Shown piece after piece: positions 26,104-64,000 of a DNA stretch of 64,000 nucleotides. The position numbers were made by a program, and so were the translations under genes. The notes beneath the pieces are model-generated. The model ran no database searches, had not been told where the DNA came from, and saw only the letters and a list, made by a program, of their open reading frames with translations. The stretch is from Sphaerodactylus townsendi (Eukaryota). Position 1 is the stretch's first letter; every line of letters begins with the position of its first letter. The stretch covers positions 125,922,001 to 125,986,000 of the forward strand of contig NC_059427.1 in NCBI RefSeq assembly GCF_021028975.2, given 5' to 3'.

Positions 26104-29100
26104 CTGTGAATAAGATAAGAAGAGCTCATGGATACCTCTAACATTTAAGCAGCCAACCTCTCCAAGAACAGGGTACAATGGGATGCCTTAAAGCAAGTAG
26201 CCAAGTAACCGGCAGGGTGGATTGAGGGAGGAGGGACTTAAAAATTATGTACAATTTAAAAGACAATATTTTAAAAATAAAATTCAGCTACAGAATTTCT
26301 ATGACCATCTAGTGAACAGACTGAATTAAAATATGCCTTTTTGCATAAAAATTAAATGGGAAAACACTTGACGTCTGAGATTGTGTTTCATGAAGAACAA
26401 TATTGGATTTACTTTTAGAGGGCAGGCGTGTTGATCTGCAGCAGAACAGTTAAATTAGGGTCTAGTAACACCTTAGAACAGGGGTAGGGAACCTGCGGCT
26501 CTCCAGATGTTCAGGAACTACCATTCCCATCAGCCCCTACCAGCATGGCCAATTGGCCATGCTGACAGAGGCTGATGGGAATGGTAGTTCCTGAACATCT
26601 GGAGAGCCGCAGGTTCCCTACCCCTGCCTTAGAACAACAGGATTTTTGGAGTATAAGCTTTCAAGAATCAAAGCTCCCTTGATTATGAAAGGAACTTTGA
26701 CTCTCAAAAGCTCATATCCCCAAAATATTGTTGCTCTCCAAGTTGGTACTGAGTCCAAATCTAGCTGTATTTATTTTTGTCTTCCTACCAGGCCTTAGGA
26801 AGCAGGATTTCCTAATTACCACGACAATCCATAAAGGCTCTAGTGATGATCCTAAATTCCTAGTTCATGCTTTTTGCATAGCTGAACATACCTGTTCTAT
26901 TCTCAAGTAAAGAGTATTTAGGATATTACTCACAACATGAACATCTACTCCCGTGGTGGCGAACCTTCGTCACTCCAGATGTTATGGACTACAATTCCCA
27001 TCAGCCCCTACCAGCATGGTCAACTGGCCATTCTGGCAGGTGCTGATGGGATTTGTAGTCCATGAACATCTGGAGTGCCAAAGGTTCGCCACCACTGATC
27101 TACTCCATTCCATGGAAAAATGGTATATAAATAATCACCCCTGATTGTATAAAATCCTTGCAGCCAAATCCTGCATATGCACATTTGGAAGCAAACATAT
27201 AGTTGTGCTGAAGATTGTGGCTCTCTGGCTGCCTGTAAAAGCCCAAGTGTGAATGCACACAGGTAAACTAGAGCTGTGTGGGTAGAGTAATGGGGATTTA
27301 ACTATTTAATCTTCAGTCAGTTTCGCAAATTGAAACCAACCTTTCATTATCAGCATTTAACATTTACAAAATGGGTTTTAAAGGACATACTCCCCCGCAC
27401 TCCTTTAAAACAAAAGTACAGGTTAGTTAAAACAGCCAGTGACTGAAAAGCTAAGATTCCTTTCCTCTTCCCTGATCCAAACCAGGATTGTGTATATACC
27501 CATACACAATTCACTTTTTACAGGTAGCTGAAAATCCATGATCCTCATTGTGACTGTTTGTACCCTACATCCCATCTTGCTCAATCGGACTTTCTTCCAA
27601 ATATGTGTTCACAGAATAGCAGCCCTAACTTTATGGTAAACAGCTGTTGCTCACTACCCTTGCACGCATGCAGAGGCAAACAAAAACTTCTCTTGTTCCA
27701 TGACCAGCCTTAATTTTCTTTTCTCTAACCAAAGGTGGACATGTGATGTGAACAAAGATTTTGGATTATTCTCCCAGGTAAAATAAAAGCTCTATTTAAA
27801 GGGAAATCAATATGTTTACATTGCTATAGCAATTTATAGCCAAAAAATGTATGTTTGCTCATTCTGAAATGGAGATTTTCAGTCTATGTTGGGTAGCTCA
27901 TAGATACTCACCTTCCCACTGTCAAACTCTTCATCCCAGTCATCAAGGACTGTCTGGCTGTGGAGCCACATAGCATCATGCACGGCATCCTGGCTGACAG
28001 CAGACACCTCACCATCCCATGTCAGTACTGTGGAACAAATCAGAAGAGCTCAGAAACTGTGGAAACTCTGTGTCTTAAGGACTTTGCTTTCTTACCCAGG
28101 AATCTAGCAAGGACAATCATCCAGAACAAGTCAACAGGAACATCTTATATTCCAGTGGTGGCGAACCTATGGCACGGGTGCCAGAGGTGGCACTCAGAGC
28201 CCTCTCTGTGGGCACGCATAGAGTGCCCCCCTCACATCTAGGCTGGCCTGAGCAGCTGGGCTTGATTATTAGCATTAAACCTAAGACCTAGTTTTGGGGA
28301 AGAAGTGTAGGTAACCCTGTTAAGCGCTGTTAAACCCCACTGATTTTCATGCAAAGAGCTAAAGTGTGATCCTTTACCTGGGAGTAAGCTTGATTGCTGG
28401 CAATGGGGCTTGCTTCTGAGTAAACCCTCCTAGGGTCATGATTCAAAAAGCAAAGAAAATCTGCCTGAAGCTTCATGTCCATGTATCTGCTACATTCTCC
28501 TCTCCAGACACATATCGCTTGTTCTCATTTCCATAATATCTACTATAACAAAACTTTACTGGCCCAGGGCATGAAGCAGAAATCAAGTACATGTAAACAA
28601 AGCAGATTTAAAGATTTAACCCAACCATCTAGCCTACCATTTCTTGGTTGCAGGTCACAACAGTACACACACAACTGTAAACTGCAGGTAAATCAAGCAG
28701 CTTTTAAACCAACTTCACACCGTTCTCATAGCACAGGAAGACTTAATCTGCTTATAGATGGCCCTAAAAAGGTTGCATTCATTACCTTCTTTTCCATAAG
28801 CTTTATCCAAAGAATCCTTCAGCAGCTCCTGGACCACATCAGACTGCGCTCGTTTGCACTGAGTCACTTCCTTCTTCGGACTCAGCACATTTGAGGAGTA
28901 CTTGTCCCAGTGTTTATGCTGGCTGCCCCAGGTCAGTGCTGCTGTGTAAAGGAAAAATGGGGGGAAAGTGGCAGGAGACAGAGAAACATTTGAGGACACA
29001 AGTTAGAAATGCAAGTGCAGCGCTTGGCTTTTTGCTGTGAAACTGTGCAGACAACCCTACTGCGGGGGTGTTCAGAAAAAAAGAACAGCATTCACTGCAC

Positions 29101-32100
29101 ATCAGTAACAAGTAAATTTCTCAAGTGCCATCAAGGTTAAAAAGATCATCTACAAAAAACATATCTGGGGGAAAACCATCATCATAAAAATAAGCATTTC
29201 TACATATAATTGCCAACTTAGAGTCTTTCACACCATATCAAACGGCCCACAAAGCAATGATACTACGTAATGCATTCTGGACTAGTCATAAAGTTCTGTT
29301 CAGTTTGACCCCTACCACAAACTTCAAGTCCCTATGCAAGCAACTGTAGTGGGTATAGATTTGCCCGCTTGTGGGAAATGAACCCTGAACCACTTTTTGA
29401 AGCGCCTGTACTCTCAGGAAGAGATGCCGAATTCCATCCAAACCCCCAGAGAGGAAATGGTATTGAACCTGAAGATAGACTGCAAGGTCTTGGGACAGGG
29501 TGGAATATTGGCCATATATTACATGTAGGTCAGCATGTAGTTAATTCTTCTTGTTTGAGGGTATGTTAGTCTTTCAGGTTCTTTGAATATGGGTTAGAGA
29601 TGTTCAATAATGAAAGTAAACAGTTGGGAATGCTGAAAAACTGTGGGTATGAGGCAGCAATGTTTCTCCTCAGCAAAATAAAGGCAGGTTGACAAAGCAG
29701 CATAACGGTAACAGCAACAGCTTGGTTCTGGGAAGCAGTGTGGTTGGCCTGGCTTAGTCTACCAGAGCAGAATGAACCATCACTCCACAGATTCCAAGCT
29801 CTTTCTTCACACATCTACCCAAGCCACTCTTGATGCAGACAGGTCTGCCATACCTGGAGAATCAACTCTGGCTGTGCAAAGGCCATTCTCACTTAGCTCT
29901 TCAGGGGGGCTGATGACCTCAGAGGCGGAACCACCCAGTTTCTCCCTCCTCTTGTGCTTGCGGTGCTCACTCTCTGCAGCAGTGCTGCCTTTGTCTAAAC
30001 CTGGCAAAGAGAGCTGCTTTTTCTTCTTTTTCTTCTTCAGGAAGCAGGACTCTTCCGTAGACACACGTTCCAAGCAAACCTCTTCCTCATATTGTGGAAA
30101 ACAGCTGAAAAATATTTTTTAAATGTAAGTTACATTACTTTAAACTGGACTGTGTAAAAAGAAGGTTAACAATGTTGACTAAGGCCTAAGAACAATCTGA
30201 TTTAGCAAGATCACTGAATGTAATATAAAATATGTTAAAGTTTATACTGAGCCACTTAAAAGTGAATCCATGACACAGGCTCACAGAATGCTATGTAAAG
30301 AAATGAACCAGGAAGAAAATATGCAACATCAGGCAAATATCTTAAATACAGTACAATTTATTGATTTTATTACTGTGCAAATTCCAAATGCTTAGGTCAG
30401 GGGTCCCCAAACTTTTTAAACAGGGGGCCAGTTCACTGTCCCTCAGACTGTTGGAGGGCTGGACTAAAAAAAACTATGAACAAATTCCTATGCACAAATG
30501 ATTGTAAAATGTTTGATTTCACCTTTCAGCCTTTCTGTCATGGTCTATTTTTAGAACAGTAACCAAAGTATGTCAAGTACAGGGTGGGCTCCAAATATTG
30601 TTGGGGAGGCTGTGGAATACCTTCCCCTGTAAAAAAAATAGCAGAACTTTCCCAATGAAGCATTCCATCTAACCCAGGATCAGGTATCTTCCTCCCTAGC
30701 AGTGAGCGATTCACCAGCCTGGCTGATGCCAATGGGAGTGAGGCGGAACAGAAAGCCTGAGAGCAACACATGGAGTAGCCGAGAGAGAAGGGCGGAACAG
30801 GCGTTGCCACATGCAAGGTTTCCAACTCTGGGTCAGAAAATTCATGGAGATTTGGGGGTGCCATCATGTAATTGCAATCAACAGCCGTTGGGGCCGGTTC
30901 CTCCTCTCCCTCGAGCCCCCACTGCACATGAATGGAGCCATCGCCGCCATGCCTGGCGGGCCGGATAAATGCCTTCAGGGGGCAACATTTGGCCCCCGGG
31001 CCGTAGTTTGGGGACCCCTGGCTTAGGTGGTGAAAAAAGGAACATGTACCAGAGAAATACTGTCTTATCTGGAAAAACTAGACAATGACTTGGATCCTGT
31101 CTACACTATCTGCAAATGCAGTAAAAACGGTGTTCCTAAAACACAGAAGGAGTTTGGAGGAGGGGGGAATGAACAGCTCCCCCCTCACCCATGGAAATTC
31201 TAGGCAGAACCCAAGCATACATTTCAAGAAAGTTCTTGGCATTTCCTCCTAATAAACTGTCTTACTTAGGAATCATGTGCTTAGCTATCATGTAGAACAA
31301 ACATATTCTAAATCTTGCTTCTGTGAGCAATTCTAAATTACAGCGTGCAAAATTCCACCATTTATACACAATGAGAGTTTTTATATTATGCCCCTGCTCA
31401 GTATTTAATTGGGAAAAGATTTTTAAAAAACTGTTATATCTCCAGCATTAATATAAATGCTTATTTAGGATATACAGGAGATGCAAATGTGATTTAAAAA
31501 ATCTGATCTGACTGCAGACGTATCCTACGAAGTATGTGCTAGGAGGGCACTAGGAAGCAACAGTTCAAAGGCACTGACTGTGGTTGGCAGTCATGGGATT
31601 CAAAGACCTATTACATGGAAGGAGGGGACTAAAAGGCCATTGCTGACCTAACCCACTGCTACTAAGGAGACCACTTCCTGGGAATGCAGGCCACTGCAAA
31701 GGAATGCCGAGGGTTATGTTACGGCCTGAAGAAAAGGCCCTGGATTCCAAGAACATTTGTGGTGCTGCTTAGCTATACAAACACCATCCACACCCCATGC
31801 TGCAGTCATTCAATCCCTATCCCAAGTATAGAAGCAGCAAACTCTTACTTGTTCACAGGGGACAGCAAAGATTTGTAGTCTTCCTCCATCTGCCGCAGCC
31901 TCTTTTTTCTCTTTTTTTTCCGGATGGAACTGGTTAGATTTGAACCAGGTACTGTCTGATCCTCAGCCATTCCCTCCTCTTTTCTTTTTCTGGCTGCCAC
32001 CTTCACCTGTACAGAAGAGGCCATGATGCTGCCATTCTCCTTCAGTTGCCTCTTCTTCCTGGGAGGACTGGAAAGCCAGGTCCTGACCACATTGTCTTCT

Positions 32101-32446
32101 ATCATGCTTGGGCTGCAATGGGTACCTTGTGCCTCTCCTGAAGGGCTATGCTTCCTTTTTCTTTTTTTGGAGCTGGCAAAGGAAGGGCCCTTAGCTTTGT
32201 CTGAGTCAAAGTGTCTCCATGCCCCTTTGGGCACAACAGGTGGTGACAGAGGGGCAGAAGAGAGGCAGCATGATTTGAAGCTGGATGAGGGTGTAAAGTT
32301 GGCAAAGGTGGCGTTGGCTGAGTGTGGAGGTGCCGAAGATTTGGAAGCAGATGAGAGCACCCTGAAGGAAGAAGCACACACAAAGCTCACAAACCTACAC
32401 ATCCTGCCATGATTGACATCCTTGCAGAAAACCACTATAGTTCCTA

Positions 32447-32481
<35 letters not shown>

Positions 32482-35400
32482 GAAGAAGAAGAAGAAGAAG
32501 AAGAAGAAGAAGAAGAAGAATTGGATTTATATCCCCGCTTTCTCTCCTGAAAGGAGACTCAAAGGGGCTTACAAACTCCTTCCCCCCTCACAACAAACAC
32601 CCTGTGAGGTAGGTAGGGCTAAGAGAGCTCCGAAGAACTGTGATTAGCCCAAGGTCACCCAGCTGGTGAGTGTTGGGAGTGTACAGGCTAATCTGAATTC
32701 CCCAGATAAACCTCCACAGCTCAGGCAGCAGAGAAGGGAATCAAATCCGGTTCTCCAGATTAGAGTACACCTGCTCTTAACCACTACACTACAGCTGCTC
32801 CTATTCAAACACAGCTATCACTATTACCGCCAAACATTTAATTTAATTTCATTTATTACATTTGTAGGACGCCCTTCCCCTTATGAGCTTAGGGCGGCTT
32901 TCAACAATACAAAATAAACAGTACAGTGCAGAAATATAATAAAACAAGAATTAAATTCCAAATTATCCTTGATGGTGACTAACACTCAACACTATACATT
33001 CCTATTCTTGAAGGTTGCAAATAGGAATGGAAAGGGGTGGGGAAGAAGGAGAGGTTTGTCTATCCACACATTTCTATAATGCAGGCATGCAACTTTGGTG
33101 CATGCACACATGCAGAATTGCAATCTGAAATGGGGAATTTGTAAAGGCTGGGACTCAGTAGGTAAGAAAATGATTTCCTTGCAGAAGATCCCTTTCGAAA
33201 ACAAAATCTGTCCAGCAAGAAGTCAATCCTATATTCAACCTCAGCACTCTCCGGTTCAAGCTCCCTGGTTCACAGATGTTAGAAAAAGATTTTTCACTGC
33301 CTGAGACACTCATGAGCCACTGCTAGTCAGAGCTGCCAGTACTAATAGATCAGTGATCTGATTCCATGTAAGGCAGCTTCATACATTTTGATACTGCATC
33401 CAGAACTGTTAAATCTTACTAACCTAAGGGAGACTTTTGGAATACTGGCTTTTATCCTGGGCTGTCTGTCTTTAGGGAAATTCTTCAGGTCATTTGGGAG
33501 GTAAATAATCCAAACATCTTACTGCTTGCTTTTTTAAAGAAGACATTCTTCTCATTCATTGCAAACATACACTCAAAGACCATTTCAGGCAGCATTAGCA
33601 AACGTTTCAGCATTTTAGAGATTGGGGGGAGGCGGGGGACTTTCTGTGCCCTGTGCTATTTCCAGTTTCTCCCTTATATGACTGGCTATATTTTCTCAGT
33701 CTCTGTTACCCATTAGCGCTCATCTTGCTGGCATACTTGTTTTAAAAAGTTACCAAGCCCTGCTCAAAAGCAAATAAAGCATGAAAATTCAACTAGTTTA
33801 CACTAAATGAACAAGTCAAACAGCGCAGAATTGATACTTTTGCTGCAAAGCATGAGGAGAACCAAACACAGTATGAAAAACAATTGCTACTGAGCAATGT
33901 TGCTGCATGCCTTTGGAGAGGCAAAACTATGCGGTAGTCCCAAGCAAAGAGGTGCCACATATCTCCAGGGAACCTAGATAAATCAAGCTGAGATTATCAG
34001 CTCTGAAGGAAGGGAGCAACCAGCCACAGAATAGCAAACGCAGGAAAGAGCAGACCCTAACTGATGTGAGGTTATGCAGCTAGACTTTGTTTTCAAGGAT
34101 TGTAACAGCCTGTGCAAAGATTCTCAGTCCTAAGGAGCAAGGCTTTCTATTCCAGAACAAACAACAGAAGTACACCAAAAGCATCTGAAGAGCAAAGCAT
34201 CAGTCAGTAGCTTGTGAATGCCAACAGAGAACCAAACTCACTAGGGATCCAAGAACTAAAAGCAACACCCTCCACCCACTAAGGGCTTTGAGCTCTTAAT
34301 GCCTTTCGCAAGTGCTCTGAATTATTACTACAGCAATTGAAAAAGCCACATAGCAAGGAAAACGTCTAGAGTGTGCCTAGCCCTCGCGTATTTACCCAGA
34401 AGGGCATCTGGGGACAGCTTACCTGCGATAGCCAAGTGCAGCGGCGCAGACGGGGTGGGTGGTGTTTGTGGCGGCTGGTGGGGAGTGGGGTGGTGCCTGA
34501 TGCTCACTGCCGCTCACTTTCTGCAGTGTGTTGTTGCCCTGTAGTTATTGACATAAATAAAAACTTGGTGGTCTAAAAAAGAGGTTTCCATGACCCAAGG
34601 GAGGAGGGGGTGGAGTAAGAAGAGAGGGAGGGGACAAAAACAAAAAGGGGCGGGGGCGGGGGCAGGGAGGGGAAGAAGAATCAGAAAAGTGTTTGTTGTT
34701 AGAAACAAAGGAAGAGGAAGGACATGTAAGAAGACAGAACAGTGTTAGCAAAAAATAACAGGCAAACTGGCATCTTCTCTTCCCTCTCAGCTGCTTGCCA
34801 GGGCCCACGTCAGGAGTGCCAGCCTGGGCTTCTGAGTTTTGCACATGAAGCCAGACCACACCCTTCTCTCGACATGCCCTGACCATGCAAAAGAGCTGAT
34901 GGGAGTGAGAGGACATCAGGTCTACACAAGCCTAATAACCCTTCTTCTAAGACAAGGGCCCCCTTCAGACCATGAAAAAGCAGTTCCCACGGTAACAATC
35001 GAGAACTTGAGGCAAGCAGTTTCCCTTCAAAACTGTTCTCTGAGTATACAAAGTGGAGACTTGGACAATCTGCTAATGCCTGGCCTTCTAAGATAATAAG
35101 GTGAGCCAGGTTAGAATTTTACTTAGTCTTTCATCAGCAAAACACCAATGGGTTAGAGTGGCAATTCCAAACACCCCCCCTTCCCTTCACCTCCCCTCAC
35201 CATTTTCTCCTCAACCTGGAGAGCCCTCCCACCCCACCCAAACGCACCTTCCTGGCAGACAGGGCCAGTTTCTTTGCAGGTGGGGGGGACATGGTGCTTC
35301 CCAGCTCCAGATTGGTCATAGTAGCAAGCAATGGCGATTTTAACTTGGCAAACTTGGAGTCCTCAGAAACAGATTTCCCAGAGCCACAGTCTGTTTCCTG

Positions 35401-38400
35401 AGAGGAGCAATAGCCATTGATGCCCATTGTGGCTTGCGGGAGCCCCTTGTTCGAGTGATGTGCTGGACTGGATGAAGAGGAGCTGCTCGAAGATGTGGAA
35501 GAGGTTGTTAAAGATGAGGAGTCCTTGCTTTGCAGATCGGCACCTTCGTCACGAGCTTCATCCGTAGGACTCTCTAGCAGCTGTGAAGAGGGAGTCAAGC
35601 CCTTGTCTTCCCAGGAATTCAGCTTGCACATCTCCACCCTGGCAGCACTAGTCTCACTGTAGTCCTGAGATGTCTTGAGGAAAGACTGCTTCTTGGATCT
35701 CTTGCTTAAGTCATCCAGGAAAGTTGGCTTGTTGAGGAGTTTCGGCGACAAGAAGCCAGTATTAGAGAAGAGCTTGGGAGGAGGACCAGTCCCATTCTGA
35801 GGTTTGGAGTTGGAAGGAAAGGAGCTGCGGGGTACAGGGACACCAGATTCCTCAGGCTCCAAGATCTTCTTGGCCTGAGACACATCTGACCTCTGCAGAG
35901 AAGAAAGGCACAGAGATTGGAAAGAGATCCACACAGCCAACGTTTGTGTTTTACAGGAGGATAGCACTCGCACAATAAAGCCAGCTTCAGGCTCTGAACT
36001 AGCTACCACATATACCCTTAAACCTTCCGCCCTCTCCTCCCACGTGGAAGGCATTAAAATAATTAGTTAGTTATAAAATAATATTATCCTACACCAACTG
36101 AAATTTTCCCAAACAATGTATTTATCCATGCCTTAATAGCACAAGTCCTGAGCCACGTTCTCCAAAACTGCAGATGAAGTGATAAACCTGTGCCAACTGA
36201 GATTACAGACAAATGTGTATTGACCTCCTTCCTCCCTCTTACTCAAATTAAAAGATTCATGAATAATTCTCCCTATCTAGATTCCTGCATGCAGATAACA
36301 TTTTGTATGAAGGAATACTCAGTTTTGGGATATCCCTCCATCTACATTCTGAAGTGGTACAGCCCAAGTGGAAACTTACCACCTAAGTGAAGAAGAAGAA
36401 GAGTTTTGATTTATATCCCCCCTTTCTCTCCTGTAGGAGACTCAAAGGGGCTTACAATCCCCTTGCCCTTCCCCCCTCACAACAAACACCCTGTGAGGTG
36501 GGTGGGGCTGAGAGAGCTCCGAAAAGCTGTGACTAGCCCAAGGTCACCCAGCTGGCGTGTATGGGAGTGCACAGGCTAATCTGAATTCCCCAGATAAGCC
36601 TCCACAGCTCCAGCGGCAGAGCAGGGAATCAAACCCGGTTTCTCAATACACAATGCCCCTAAATGAGAGTTAGTCCCCAATACAGGCCCCTATTCTAATC
36701 TAATTAAAGTTAACTTCTAATTTGCTAACATGCTTGTCCACAAACATGTTGCCAGATTTTGCAATAGATGTTTCTCCATACCCCATCTCCACCTAGCTAA
36801 CTGGTTGAGAGCAACTTCACTTCTACCTGCAATTATCTTAACCAGTTAGGGAGCTACTTTCTCCACTGTGGAGTCGGGTGTAGCTTCCTGAGAACCTGCA
36901 GGAAAGGGCAACAGGTATTTTGTAAAAGGATTCAGTTTCCTGTATTTTTTTTAACCAAGTTTCCAGTCACTATAGCTGTGAAGACACAGCACTGGGTACA
37001 ATCTGCTGAAATCTCAAAAGTCAGAAAGGTTACTGAATAAGATTTTCAGTAGTTAGAGCAGCGGTTCTCAACATGTGGGTCGCGATCCCTTTGGGGGTCG
37101 GACGACCCTTTCACAGGGGTCACCTAAGACCATTGGAAAATTACAGTTATGAAGTAGCAACGAAAATAATTTAATGGTTGGGGGTTACCACAACATGAAG
37201 AACTGTATTAAAGGGTTGCAGCATTAGGAAGGTTGAGAACCACTGAGTTAGTGGAGGCTGGCCTTCAGTGGCCTTGCCTCTCTCAGGACTAGCAAAACCA
37301 CAATTATGCAACATCATCGTGCAATTTTGCAGTACTGGAACAATTTACACAAGGCCTAAAATTTAAACTGACAGTTGCAACATTTTAATTAATCTATTCA
37401 TTTTAGCCTGGGAATACACAGTTCTTGAATAGTAGCTGATTCTGGACATCAGGTGGGCTAGATGGATAAGCAGAAACTCACTTTGCTGATCAGTGGTGAC
37501 GCGAGGGCACCATTAGTCGTGCTTCTCTTCATGTGGTCAGAGACAATGCTTGCTCGGTTGGACACAGGGTAGCTCTTGGAGAGTGACCCTTCAGAACTCT
37601 TCCTGGGACTTGGGATCCTTGGAAGGAAAGAAAGAAACACATAAAATGATATCCTGCCACAGCCTTGCTCCAAAGAATGTGCACAAAACAAAGGGTAGGA
37701 TCCAAACCAAATTTTTCACTAATGGAAGGGGTGAGGTAGTTTCCACAATTCTCTCTTCCTTCTGCAGAAGCCCAAATCACTCCTCATGCTGATCCTCAGG
37801 GGTCCCTGTCCCCCAAGGAAGATCAGTGGGTTGCTGGGAGTGAAGGAACATTCTATTCCACTGAAGGGTTTTGCAGGAACAGTATAGATGCAACCCACAA
37901 TCTAGGACTGACATCCAGTATGACTGATTGAGCTACCTCGGATAAGAGAATTCCTTAAGGTCATCAGAGAACAATAACAGGCAAGAGCTACAAGCGAGTC
38001 TGCCAGCCACTCCCTTCCTTCAAATGAATACAAGGTTGCACTAACAGCAGCTTTATCGTCATTCCCGTGTGTTAAGCCAAGTCCAATTTTAAGTTGACCC
38101 CTTACTCCTCTTCCACTCCATCTAGCAAGAAGACTGGGCATGCATGAGCAACAAGATATCCTTGAGAAGCAGGAAAAATGGCTAGGAAGAGTTCCACTGG
38201 TGCCACAGACACCCCACTTACCTAAGATAAAACAGCACGTAGGCCTGCTGATTGAGAACAACTTTGATGTTGCTCGAATGTACCAAAGAATCATTCATCT
38301 GGTACCACTGACCATTGCTGGCCTGAAAATGGGAGAAAGAAAGGAGAATTTGTAAGTGGCTCCCCAAACAGGCAGCCAGGGAAAAGCTACTAGCACTTCA

Positions 38401-55022: not shown

Positions 55023-58000
55023 GAACATAAGAACAAGTCAGCTAGATCAGACCAGAGTCCATCTAGTCCAGCTCTCTGCTACTCGCAGTGGCCCACCAGG
55101 TGCCTTTGGGAGCTCACATGCAGGATGTGAAAGCAATGGCCTTCTGCGGCTGTTGCTCCCAATCACCTTCTACATGCAAAGATGAAAATGAAAACCACTC
55201 GGTCACTGCAGGGGCTCAGTTTTGGAGCATCTACTTTGCATGTAGAAGGTGTTAAGGCATTTGTAATCTCAGATCAAGGAGGATCAAGATTGGTAGCCAT
55301 AAATCGACTTCTCCTCCAAAATCTGTCCAAGCCCCTTTTAAAGCTATCCAAGTTAGTGGCATCACCACCTCCTGTGGCAGCATATTCCAAACACCAATCA
55401 CACGTTGCGTGAAGAAGTGTTTCCTTTTATTAGTTCTAATTCTTCCCCCCAGCATTTTCAATGTATGCCCCCGGTTCTAGTATTGTGAGAAAGAGAGAAA
55501 AATTTCTCTCTGTCAACATTTTCTACCCCATGCATAATTTTGTAGACTTTAATCATATCCCCCCTCAGCCGCCTCCTCTCCAAACTAAAGAGTCCCAAAC
55601 GCTGCAGCCTCTCCTCATAGGGAAGGTGCTCCAGTCCCTCAATCATCCTTGTTGCCCTTCTCTGCACTTTTTCTATTTCCTCGATATCCTTTTGAGAATC
55701 GCGGTGACCAAGAACTGGACACAGTACTCAGAATCTTGCTTGGTCGCACCACTGCTTTATATAAAGGGCATGACAATCTTGGTGCAGTTTTATTATCCAA
55801 TTCCTTTTCTAATGATCCTCATAGCATAGAGTTTGCCTTTTTTACAGCTGCCATGCATTGTGTTGACATTCCCATGGAACTATCAACTAAAGACGCCCTG
55901 AAATCCCTTTTCCTGGTCTTTTGTGACTGATAGCACTTTCGACCCTGTAGTGTGTATGTGAAGTTTGGATTTTTTGCCCCTATGTGTGAAAATCACTTTT
56001 GCATTTTGCTACATTGAACTGTGACATTTTGCCATTTCTGAGCCCACTCACCTGAATTTATCAAGGTCCGCTTGGAGCTCTTAGCATATCCTTTGTGGTT
56101 CTCCACCACCCTACATAATTTGGTATCATCTGCAAAACTTGGCCACCACGCTACCCACCCCTACTTCCAGGTCTCATTTTATGAATAGGTTAAAGAGCAC
56201 TGGTCCCAAAAGCGGATCCTTGGGGGACACCACTCCGACCCATCTCTCCATTGTGAGAGAACTTCCCGATTTACAACCCACTCTTTGTTTCCTGGGTTTC
56301 TCCAACCAAGTTTTTTAATCCATAGGAGGACTTCCCTCTTATTCGCTTTTCATTGCTTGAGTTTTCTCAACAGTCTCTGGTGAGGAACTTTGTCAAAAGC
56401 CTTTTGGAAATCCAAGTAGACAATGTCGCACCGGTTCACCCCTGTCCACATGCCTGTTTTTTTACACCCTCAAAAGAACTTCTAGTAGAGTTTGTAGAAG
56501 ACCCAGGATTTGCCTCTGCAAAAGCCATGCTGACTCTTTCTCAGCAGGTCTTGCTTTTCTACATAATTTTATCTTTAATGATAGATTCTACTAATTTACC
56601 AGGAACAGATATCAAACTGACTGGCCTGTAATTTCCCTGGTCCCCCCTAGATCCTTTCTTAAAGATTGGTGTGACATTGGCCATCTTCCAGTCTTCAGGG
56701 ATGGAGCCTGATTTCAGGGATAAGTTGCATATTAAAGTGAGAAGATCAGCAATTTCATTAGCTTGAGCCTCTTTTAAGAACTCTTGGGTGGAATACAATC
56801 TGGGGCCAGGGGATTTGGTAGCATTTAGTTTATCAATGGCTGCCAAGGAACTTCTTTCGCCTTTGTCTACGACCTATCTTAGCTAGTTCCCTCAGATTCG
56901 CCTCACTGAAGCTTGGTTCATGAGTGCAGGAATGTTCCTCACCTCCTCTTGGGTGAAGACAGATGGCCAAAAGGAATTCATTCAGCTTCTCTGCAATCTC
57001 CCTGCCATCTTTTTAGCACACCGCTTTTGTTCCTTTTGTCATCCTAACGGGCCTACCGCTTCCCTTGCTGGCTTCCTGGCTTTTGATGTTACTTGAAGAA
57101 CTGTTTGTTGCTGGTCTTGATGTTCGCAGCCATGCGTTCCATCATAACTCCTTTTTTGCGCTCCTTTTACAGCTAACTTGGCTTCTCTTTTTGCCACCAT
57201 TTGTGTTCCCTCTCATATTCTTCTCTCATCAGTCGAAACTGGACTTCCATTTTTTTCTAAAAGACGATTTTCTTTTTTTTCTGAGTAATTTCCTCAACCT
57301 CTCTTAGTTAGTTAACCATGGTGGCTTTCTTTTTGGACCGGGTATGCTGCCTTTTCTAACCTTGTGGGAACACATTCCAGCTGAGCTTTTATTACTGTGT
57401 TTTTAGAATAACCTCCAAGCATCCTGGACAGTTTTTGACTCTGCTTGATTTTTCCCTTTCAGCTTCCTGCGCACTATCCCCTCATCTTTGAGAAATTTCC
57501 CCTTTCTGAAGGGGCGAATGTAACTTAACATTAGTGAGTTGCCATTTTGTTCAGCATGCGCTGAGAACCACTGAATCTGACAGCATTGTGGTAAGCTGTT
57601 CCCTATTGAGCTCAACAACACTGACTTCTCCTCACCAGGTCCTGGGTGTCCCACATAGAATTAGATCTAGAGATCACCTCTCCCTGGTTGGTTCCACAAC
57701 CATCTGCTCCTAAGCCACAGTCATTTAGCCTATCCAGGATATGCTCTCTCCTTACTAAGTGACCTGAACATGCATTTTTTCCAGTTTTATATAGGGGATA
57801 GTTAAAAATCACCCATTACCACTACATTTTGTTGTTTTGTTTTGGTGACCTCTCTAATTTTTTCTTTTTTCCATCTCAGAATCCTCTTGTGCACTTTGGT
57901 CCAGGGGGGGGCCGATAATATATTCCTAATATTAAACTGTCCTTCACACCTGGTATTGATATCCGAACAGTGATTCTGTAAGAATCAGCTCCCCTTGCAT

Positions 58001-59497
58001 TGTCTTTTTTTGGCCATTTTATTTTGTGATACTATGCTCTCTTTGATGTAAAGGGCAACGCTCCACCCTGACAATCGCCCTGTCCGCACTTATCCTTCCT
58101 ATAGAGCCTGTAGCCTGGCAATTATAACAGCATCCCACTGGTTCTCCTTTCCTCATTCCACCATGTCTCTGTAATGCCCACTCATATCAGATTAAGTCCT
58201 CCTTCAAAACTCTGTACTCCAGCTCCCCATTTTTTGAGGTTTCGAGGAATTAGCTTCTACTATTAGGCATAGAGACACCTGTATACCTGTCTCTGTAATC
58301 CTTAACCTGGGATTTATGTGCTTTACCCTCAAGTCTTTTTGTAGACACTATCCCTTGTCACATGCACATACTTCTATGTTCCTCAAAGCTTTGGCCATGT
58401 GGGTTGATTTAGAAAAACCTCCCTCTCTGTCTGCATCCCTATATAGATACTGTATTCGGAACTCAAGTCCACCTCAGCTCCTGTCGGCTTTCCCCCAGGG
58501 CTCCAGTTTTAAAAGCTGTTCTGCCACCTTTTACTTAATGTTGGAGCACCAGCAGCCTGGATTTCCTCTTTGGATTAAGATGAAGCCCGGTCCCGTTTGT
58601 ACAGGGCCTGCCTTGTCCCAAAAAGGTTTCCCCAGTTCCTGACAAATCTGAAACCCTCTGCCTTACACCCACCTTCCTCATCCACGCGCCCCATTGGGAC
58701 CCTGTATCTCCGCTTGCCCTAAGCTTGCCCTGCGGTGCAGGGAGCGGGTAGCATTTCTGAGAATGCTCACCTTGGGGGGTCCTGGACTTCCAACCTGTTT
58801 CCTAGGCAGCCTAGAATTTAGCTTCCAGAACCTCCCGGCTACATTTCCCAATGTCAATTTGGTGCCAATGTGGGACCACAACTGTACTGACTCCACCCCA
58901 GCACTGTCTAAAAGCCGCTATCTAGACCGGAAAGCGTGACATCCGCAAGAACCTTCGCACCAGGAGCGGAGGCAAGTCACTATCACCGGTCATCAGCAGC
59001 CTCTCACAAACTCCAACTCTCTACATTTCCTAATGATCGAGATCACCCACTTCACTGAGGAGCACCCCACCTCCTCGAGGGGTATCCTCAAAGTCGCGAG
59101 AGGATAGCTGATCACCAGTTAAGGAAGGGATCCCATCTAAGGGAGCATCTTCCCCCACCTCAGACTGGCACCCTCCGTCCCCAAGACCTTCATTCTCCAT
59201 GACATCTGAAGAGATGTCACCTTGGGAGTGGGACCCGGTTGTTAGGTCCCTGAAAGCCTCGTCTGTCACCCTCTCTGCCTCTTTCAGCTTCTCCAAGTTC
59301 AAGCCACCTTATGCGGGCTTCAAGAGAATGCACACGTTCCTTGAGTGCCAGGAGCTCATTGCAGCGAGGGCACACCCACGACTTCTGTCCTAGTGGCAGA
59401 TAGTCATACATGTAACACTCAGTGCAAAACACTGGAAAGCCCCCATCCCCCTGCTGGCTTTCTGCCTTCATATCTGGCTTTCTGCCTTCATATCTGG
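55023..59497 (-). mobile_element. CR1 LINE, near full-length (ORF1 zinc-finger/esterase type; ORF2 endonuclease-reverse transcriptase), frameshifted as given
   Basis: ORF1 start MKAESQQGDGGFPVFCTEC...WVCPRC; RT segments IPEDWKMANVTPIFKKG...NYRPVSL, FADDT (about 56121-56136) and MQRRATRMIEGLEHLPYEERL; TTCTTATGTTC-type 3' tail. Confidence 0.95.
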
Positions 59498-60154
59498 ACT
59501 TTGTTCCTGTAGTCCTAAAATTGGCTAAAACAGTGCATTCTCGCTGGCCCTTTATCTGTGATTTCCTGGTGCTGCAGGGACAGCCCTTCTCTCTGCATAT
59601 GTGCATACAGGCATGGCGGGCCTTGCAAGGTGTTCCATTTCTCACCATATACTTGGTGGAAAGTGCCCTTAGTAGCAGCCCTGGATTTCCTTGATGGTCT
59701 GCCATCCTAGAAGTAACCAGTGCCAATGCTGCTGCTTAGCTTCTGCTGAGATCAGGCTAACCTGGATCATCTTCATACCCCCCGCTATTTTTATTGCCCA
59801 CTTTTGAAATGATTTGTTTTTCCTCCTCCCCCCCCCCCATAAATCAGGGGAGCAGCTCATAATTATTAAACTATCCTCTCCTCACCATCTAGCATTTTAG
59901 AGTGCACATTTCTGCAAAAATAGATTAATTAATTAGATAGGCTCTCCCTATACAGTAAGGATATCTTTCAGAAGCAAAACTGACCCCCTCTGATTCAATG
60001 TCTTCTTCTGAATAGGATCATGGGTCTCCTCAATCACTATAGACTCTGATAACTTAGATGGCTCACCCTTCTGCCAGTGTGAATTAGTTCAGCTATAGTT
60101 TTATAAACTGCCCTAACTGCATCTACTTATCTTGTAGTGCATAGCACTGTTGCA

Positions 60155-63499: not shown

Positions 63500-63697
63500 T
63501 CAAGGGTCCTCAATGTCAAGAAACTCTTGCTTCGGCGGGGCCACTCCACGGTACCATGCGCATGACCCATCACTCCGCTTGATGCAGGCATAGTGCTTTG
63601 CCTGCCGCCCATTGATGTTCTTCTCAGTCACCCAGTCAGTCCACAGACACTCATCCTGAGCAGAGACATAGCAAGGGATGGAGGGGCAGCGGGAGAT
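63500..63697 (-). CDS. TIMP2: Metalloproteinase inhibitor 2, last coding exon (198 nt); upstream exons lie right of the window
   Basis: CTGCAG|ATC; [65 protein letters not shown] is the TIMP2 C-terminus. Confidence 0.98.
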
Positions 63698-64000
63698 CTG
63701 CAGAGAGAAGAGACAACCATTTTGATTGCTAGTGGATATTTCTCCGCTTTGGGGGAGGCTGCTGTTTCTTGTACAAATGCATTTCTCCTGAAAACAAGGG
63801 AAGCTGTAACCCAGGCTATCAAACCAGGCAGGAGTTCTTGCTCTGAGCAACTAAGGGCCTCCACAGGCACATCTTTTCAGCTGCTCAGTAGCAAATATGC
63901 AAATAATCAAGCCGTTCTTTAGGTTCATTGCAGACGTAAATTTTCTTCAAAATGTGAAGCACACAATTAAAAGCAGACAAGGCATAGCCATTCCAGACAT

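Follow-up and report, generated by a model that had tools for sequence, protein, structure and literature searches.

In the gecko Sphaerodactylus townsendi, USP36 intron 12 appears to end in two acceptor units, and selection of one or the other likely determines the amount of USP36. The reading preferred here, to which a probability slightly above one half (about 0.55) is given, is that the choice of branch point routes the USP36 mRNA either to full-length protein or to nonsense-mediated decay (NMD). As a rule, splicing from a distant branch point proceeds to the first AG that follows it. Here, a distant branch point followed by a long pyrimidine tract would direct the spliceosome to an AG located 34 nt upstream of the in-frame acceptor (the -34 acceptor), and the use of this AG would shift the frame into a stop codon predicted to trigger NMD. 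A weak near branch point, located 3' of both upstream AGs, would lead to the in-frame AG and hence to the full-length protein. We infer that each branch point is paired with its own AG, that the -34 acceptor is used in gecko, that the resulting mRNA is decayed and that the choice is regulated. USP36, which acts in the nucleolus as a deubiquitinase and SUMO ligase, is required for rRNA processing (PMC10164564), and a splice switch shared by fish and human suggests an extra layer of its control.

Intron 12 and its acceptors

The window (the whole 64,000-nt stretch of gecko DNA that was analysed, contig NC_059427.1) contained S. townsendi USP36 on the minus strand, on which all USP36 features given below are located. 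Exon 12 matched this gene at 100%, and the joined translation of an 18-exon minus-strand model was exactly that of RefSeq proteins P0001 and P0043 (both isoforms). The exon at 34423-34538 (116 nt) was coding exon 13 of 18 in this model, preceded by coding exon 12 (35248-35892, 645 nt, ending in phase 0) and followed by coding exon 14 (31849-32361), which holds four of the five basic clusters of the protein (residues 784-873). The in-frame exon-13 acceptor was used in both gecko RefSeq isoforms, which counts against the switch. The difference of one Ala between isoforms X1 and X2 was accounted for by tandem acceptors of exon 16 at 28941 and 28938. Outside USP36, the window held what we take, from their translations, to be a TIMP2-like last coding exon (63503-63850) and CR1-like retroelement fragments (about 55600-59700).

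An AG-free zone, three AGs, their reading frames and a stop are present in the gecko sequence itself. No AG was found on the minus strand between 34766 and 34575, a zone of 192 nt with 80% pyrimidine; the preliminary description had put it at about 190 nt, and its other coordinates were likewise correct on this strand. This gap was the longest AG-free run on either strand of the window (the next on the minus strand, by ranking of the gaps between 4,708 AGs, was 105 nt and the plus-strand maximum was 157 nt), while the other 16 USP36 introns had runs of at most 92 nt within their final 300 nt. The -34 acceptor is preceded in this way by a large AG-exclusion zone (at least 150 nt AG-free before an acceptor). 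The number of such gaps expected by chance in the window was 0.002, and when intron 12 was shuffled, 192 nt without AG was reached 11 times in 20,000. When the zone's own bases were shuffled, 2,228 of 20,000 shuffles (11%) contained no AG, so that the gap is largely a consequence of the pyrimidine content, and the unusual feature is the long pyrimidine-rich stretch more than the absence of AG itself. The zone is rich in UC motifs, which are binding motifs of PTB-type proteins.

The first AG after the zone (34573-34574) gives an exon start at 34572, which extends the exon by 34 nt relative to the in-frame start at 34538, as had been described. A second upstream AG (34564-34565, exon start 34563; the -25 acceptor) had been overlooked; it opens the same frame as the -34 acceptor. 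The in-frame acceptor itself (34539-34540) had been said to have a poor tract, and its pyrimidine fraction at -14 to -3 (0.50) was in fact the lowest of the 17 USP36 coding-region acceptors; the exon-15 acceptor at 30104 was likewise low in pyrimidine (0.58). The 34-nt extension between the two exon starts (34539-34572) contains the -25 AG, the near branch-point candidates and the in-frame AG, and codes for residues 1-11 of the short-isoform tail, which are conserved. An AG-free path from a distant branch point exists for the -34 acceptor only, the path to the in-frame acceptor being interrupted by two AGs (at -27 and -36).

Several alternatives to this arrangement were rejected. No Rfam match was found in 34583-35900 at E<=1, and RNA fold z-scores ranged from -0.02 to +1.87 in all five windows examined, so no stable fold was indicated; neither an intron-hosted structured RNA (snoRNA etc.) nor a hairpin masking the first AG was supported. 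Since the in-frame AG lies far behind two AGs and no hairpin masks them, a separate near branch point within the extension most likely serves it. A U12-type intron was ruled out from the donor sequence, judged against the U12 consensus. A weak internal donor (34508-34507), combined with the -34 acceptor, would give a 65-nt in-frame exon; as a main story this was discarded, because the donor fits the U1 consensus at four of nine positions (eight of nine for the real donor) and the required GT is impossible in mammals or most teleosts. An in-frame AG was also noted 18 nt into exon 13 (34522-34521).

From both upstream AGs the reading frame runs into the TGA at 34506-34504, after 22 (-34) or 19 (-25) codons, and the first 11 codons of exon 13 are read in a second frame. 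The distance of this stop to the exon-13 donor, previously put at 81 nt, was confirmed; it is longer than the 50 nt of the NMD rule, and five junctions lie downstream if the transcript reaches exon 18. The stop position and these five junctions favour the NMD reading. The next stop in the shifted frame, at codon 102 in exon 14, would likewise trigger NMD, so that NMD alone needs no fixed early stop, which is a point against this reading. Retention of intron 12 leads to a stop after 16 codons, and skipping of the 116-nt exon shifts the frame, as had been claimed, with a stop after 51 codons. The loss of the C-terminal basic clusters from the short form also stood, all five being 3' of the alternative exon 12/13 junction. 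In intron 13, an AATAAA and an ATTAAA adjoin at 32857 and 32847 as a possible intronic poly(A) site, the use of which would make the short form immune to NMD.

The alternative tail and its stop

Species were compared at the protein level with 356 proteins, a set enriched by tail-directed searches, so that the following counts are not a frequency. The alternative tail was present in 17 of the 356 proteins, 14 of the -34 type and three of the -25 type. The -34 type comprised two human, one rat, four rodent-cluster Logan and seven teleost records, the last from six or more teleosts (Albula, Arapaima, stickleback, a Logan teleost-like protein and three of Nothobranchius). The -25 type comprised three frog records, among which the tail of isoform X2 of the tailed frog resembles the gecko -25 translation. 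The remaining exon-13 starts were main-frame (220), began with V (86), were of another kind (6) or had no anchor (27); the 86 V-starting records are either intron read-through or model artefacts. The alternative tail was not found in any reptile or bird protein retrieved.

The database short isoforms were human USP36 X11 (XP_047292432.1, UniProt A0A075B784, 716 aa; two records) and rat X2 (XP_063125312.1, 711 aa). RefSeq XP models are usually based on RNA-seq, whereas submitter models may not be. The gecko -34 translation was identical to the start of the human tail at 11 of 12 residues. The tail was the exact shifted-frame reading of its own main exon 13 in four of four species pairs (the Albula pair being of two species), while the match stopped after two residues in all 12 cross-species pairings of tail and exon 13; this own-exon test was passed by 0, 11, 0 and 48 of 20,000 shuffles for the four pairs, respectively. 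Whole short-form ORFs were found in Logan contigs (38 for P0265, seven for rat and four for human; one human full-length form had 25), and such multi-exon ORFs would require spliced RNA. The short form was assembled at full length in dozens of runs, which counts against the switch and suggests that it is not always rare. A profile search of 1.84 billion representatives gave 33 matches, of which P0115 alone matched the whole tail, and a search of the ESM Atlas with the human tail gave no usable match. The AlphaFold2 model of the Albula short form (39-row alignment) had a mean pLDDT of 39.6 and was unusable for docking of the tail.

In this protein-level comparison the unproductive event was found in mammals, frogs and teleosts. 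From fish to human, records exist of the spliced product of the out-of-frame upstream acceptor, which is itself conserved. Judged from the sequences compared, the alternative event is ancient, older than the preliminary description could show.

Residues 1-12 of the tail were identical in human, rodents and most teleosts, whereas main-frame exon 13 was widely diverged; beyond residue 12 the tail was variable, with a total length of 18-22 residues. The first three tail residues were gone from the frog records, with the frame and the stop kept, and residue 11 toggled between A and T at the -4 position of the acceptor, which the acceptor consensus leaves free. The frame and the RNA signal thus look conserved before the peptide, and a changed acceptor with an unchanged frame, together with the toggle at a free position, favours the NMD reading.

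The position of the shifted-frame stop is fixed in an otherwise poorly conserved exon. The residue pair [S/N/T/I][D/E] was present at positions 9-12 in 96 of 97 distinct main-frame exon-13 starts (127 of 128 with longer keys), compared with 220 of 1,664 four-position windows elsewhere in exon 13, counts to which no P value is attached, given the relatedness of the sequences and the use of anchoring to choose the column. The pair was seen in all 23 lineages picked, from bichir to human. Codons of the form A-N-T exist for S, N, T and I only, and the final T of such a codon, followed by GA, gives the shifted-frame TGA; every closed alternative tail terminates there. The gecko TGA (34504-34506) accordingly spans the main-frame Ser-Glu codons, at a position conserved across bony vertebrates.

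Some records depart from this pattern. In the percomorph fish P0133, P0139, P0152 and P0161, exon 13 begins at a downstream in-frame point (LSSD/LSRD), a further acceptor in exon 13 by which the conserved-stop stretch is bypassed. In Nothobranchius P0267, P0268 and P0269, the -34 tail is followed by five exon-13 codons and then by in-frame exon-14-like sequence, which could come from an internal donor and an internal acceptor restoring the frame or from one shared assembly artefact. On the other side of the alternative junction and directly abutting it, the final ~15 codons of exon 12 (SPPPAKK motif; 35248-35300) are near-invariant from fish to human in a divergent surrounding region.

Branch points in gecko and human

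Two consensus branch points had been named in the zone, and the CTAAC-type motifs were found at 34750-34744 (A 34745, -207 from the in-frame acceptor) and 34704-34698 (A 34699, -161), both as matches to the consensus. The second has the same heptamer as the distal human call at -195. A third candidate, absent from the preliminary description and again a consensus match, lies at 34686-34680 (A 34681, -143) and precedes the purest pyrimidine tract. The tracts downstream of these three YNYTRAY motifs were 75%, 60% and 95% pyrimidine, respectively. CTAAC occurred twice in the 192-nt zone, compared with 40 times in 64 kb. Weak near candidates, also new, were obtained by consensus search at 34558-34554 (A 34558, -20; A 34554, -16), within the 34-nt extension and 3' of both upstream AGs, and would serve the in-frame acceptor. 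A near branch point within the extension would explain why these 34 intronic bases are so constrained.

The human coordinate chr17:76802368 (minus strand) is taken to be the in-frame acceptor of human USP36 exon 13, so that the human exon starts in hg19 would be at about 76802402 (-34), 76802393 (-25) and 76802368 (in-frame). Together with the motif match and the 34-nt spacing, it makes orthology of the human and gecko acceptors very likely. The human lariat position falls within USP36 by the coordinates in supplement rows of PMC10123112 and PMC7347940. Among the rows listed in Table S1 of PMC5378181, two belong to this 3' splice site: a distal canonical call at -195 (one read) and a near call at about -20 to -25 (listed as -20; three reads from two sources), the sequence context of which agrees with the gecko 34-nt extension. 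Among those listed in File S2 of PMC5959240 are 76802565 (about -197) and 76802402 (-34), with a score of 2 each. The near call and the 76802402 row correspond to the first base after the -25 and the -34 AG, respectively, so that these calls may not be ordinary branch points.

For the distant branch point of the preliminary description, two lariat data sets thus have entries in what is very likely the human counterpart of the intron. The calls at the distant site are all human (one read and one score-2 row), and lariat support for the distal and near calls together is one to three reads among the rows listed. The same description had held that a branch point mapping within 40 nt of the in-frame acceptor would speak against its proposal, and the near human call goes part of the way towards this. 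Since the near call sits beside the distal one, the model was refined to two branch-point/acceptor units and not refuted. Its interpretation is partly supported by evidence from other species, namely the conserved out-of-frame acceptor, the spliced product and the distant human branch call, and the outcome would be either a dosage switch or a truncated enzyme.

Published data on paired branch points bear on the preferred reading from both sides. Use of the downstream AG is associated with branch points that are located past an upstream AG or too near to it (PMC5378181), and deletion of the distal branch point in the three minigenes reported there had modest effects only, which counts against the switch. 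USP36 intron 12 would offer a compact natural system for asking whether acceptors in different frames can be selected by branch-point choice alone.

Fate of the short form and relation to known systems

The selected product may alternatively be a stable short USP36 of ~700 residues, in which the catalytic domain and the SPPPAKK motif are kept, a conserved hydrophobic tail is added and the C-terminus that targets the nucleolus and binds EXOSC10 is lost; this we consider possible but doubtful. Acceptor choice would then shift USP36 between nucleolar and non-nucleolar work, consistent with the nucleolar signal and the EXOSC10 binding of human residues 801-1121 (PMC10164564). The near-invariance of tail residues 1-12 beside a diverged main-frame exon 13 argues for such a protein, but three splice signals are packed into 34 nt, and nucleotide constraint alone could fix the peptide; the frog records are three residues shorter, and the tail varies after residue 12 and in length. 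A stop fixed in 96 of 97 starts, when the codon-102 stop would also trigger NMD, points the same way, but the D/E column was chosen by anchoring among related sequences, the residue may have a role in the main-frame protein, and the stop satisfies the 50-nt NMD rule. The repeated assembly of the whole form is a further argument for a stable protein, against which the rodent contigs of 5.5-5.7 kb would fit a full mRNA with downstream junctions. The three Nothobranchius records hold the tail peptide within an open full-length protein. Absence of the event from two GENCODE-based NMD catalogues also fits a stable product, ambiguously, as inclusion in them is governed by annotation labels and thresholds. 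Only tentatively may it be supposed that bony vertebrates have retained since the fish/tetrapod split a branch-point switch making a second, catalytically intact, non-nucleolar USP36 with a hydrophobic tail. If so, branch-point choice would move an enzyme that regulates MYC and ribosomes between compartments, and studies of full-length USP36 alone overlook a conserved isoform.

It is improbable, to our judgement, that the -34 form is a by-product of a sequence conserved to recognise or delay a weak in-frame acceptor, with the upstream AGs catching leakage, whether the distant branch point acts as a holding state or retention or skipping is regulated. The in-frame acceptor is used in most records (220 main against 17 alternative), and intron retention and exon skipping too yield early stops (16 and 51 codons). 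Distal branch points are proposed mainly to slow splicing (PMC5378181), and far-distal ones are enriched in retained introns (PMC5959240). A harmful leak AG would be easily lost, yet the acceptor is on record in mammals and teleosts and present in gecko, and frogs use a neighbouring AG of the same frame, in which the stop is retained. That the zone is a chance pyrimidine-rich stretch of the gecko, with no role in splicing, is very unlikely and already largely refuted: 11% of shuffles of its own bases are AG-free and large zones can arise from simple repeats (PMC1431707), but the downstream acceptor and tail are conserved, the human distal call has the same heptamer at a similar distance (implying a long span to the first AG), and CTAAC is concentrated in the zone.

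If the preferred reading of a poison event holds, it would offer a ready antisense handle for adjusting USP36 in either direction, and variants in the intron, 30-200 nt before exon 13, could matter. Exons with large AG-exclusion zones and distant branch points, poison acceptors and branch-driven acceptor choice are already known kinds of event; new is the deeply conserved USP36 case, of which the human and rat isoforms are already in databases.

The first of these kinds was described by Gooding et al. 2006 (PMC1431707), e.g. PTBP1 exon 11 and GABBR1 exon 23, and USP36 was not found under four names, three of them aliases, in the two supplement files of that paper. The USP36 zone resembles theirs in exceeding 150 nt, in a branch consensus near its 5' end and in a long pyrimidine tract, and those exons are tied to alternative splicing and (PTBP1) to NMD, as is proposed for USP36. 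In those cases of exon skipping, however, the zone extends to the productive acceptor, whereas the first AG after the USP36 zone is out of frame and the productive one, preceded by two AGs, follows 34 nt later. As in the poison alternative 3' splice sites of Lim 2020 (PMC7347940) and Mironov 2023 (PMC10123112), an insertion leads to a premature stop before further junctions; unlike in those, the gene concerned encodes a deubiquitinase/SUMO ligase rather than a splicing factor, and NMD is predicted. The -34 event was absent from the USP36 rows of both GENCODE-based sources (five rows in PMC7347940 and two in PMC10123112), and USP36 was unmentioned in two supplement files of PMC8091538. As in Taggart 2017 (PMC5378181), a distal and a near branch point occur in one intron and the near one, past an upstream AG, goes with the downstream AG; theirs is a genome-wide trend, whereas in USP36 the choice would decide the frame at one locus from fish to human.

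The human X11 and rat X2 isoforms represent the same splice event and tail as annotation only, and no function, conservation or mechanism of this event was found in the literature searched, the coverage of which excludes most subscription journals. The conserved event is not described in the available text of the snoFlake preprint, PMC13387830, PMC8106077, PMC2780703 and PMC8354635. Other splicing events are on record for human USP36, namely a 3' poison exon, the inclusion of which accompanies lower expression (PMC10123112), and a separate SNORD22-dependent 72-nt cassette (snoFlake preprint), and the gene may carry several splicing controls.
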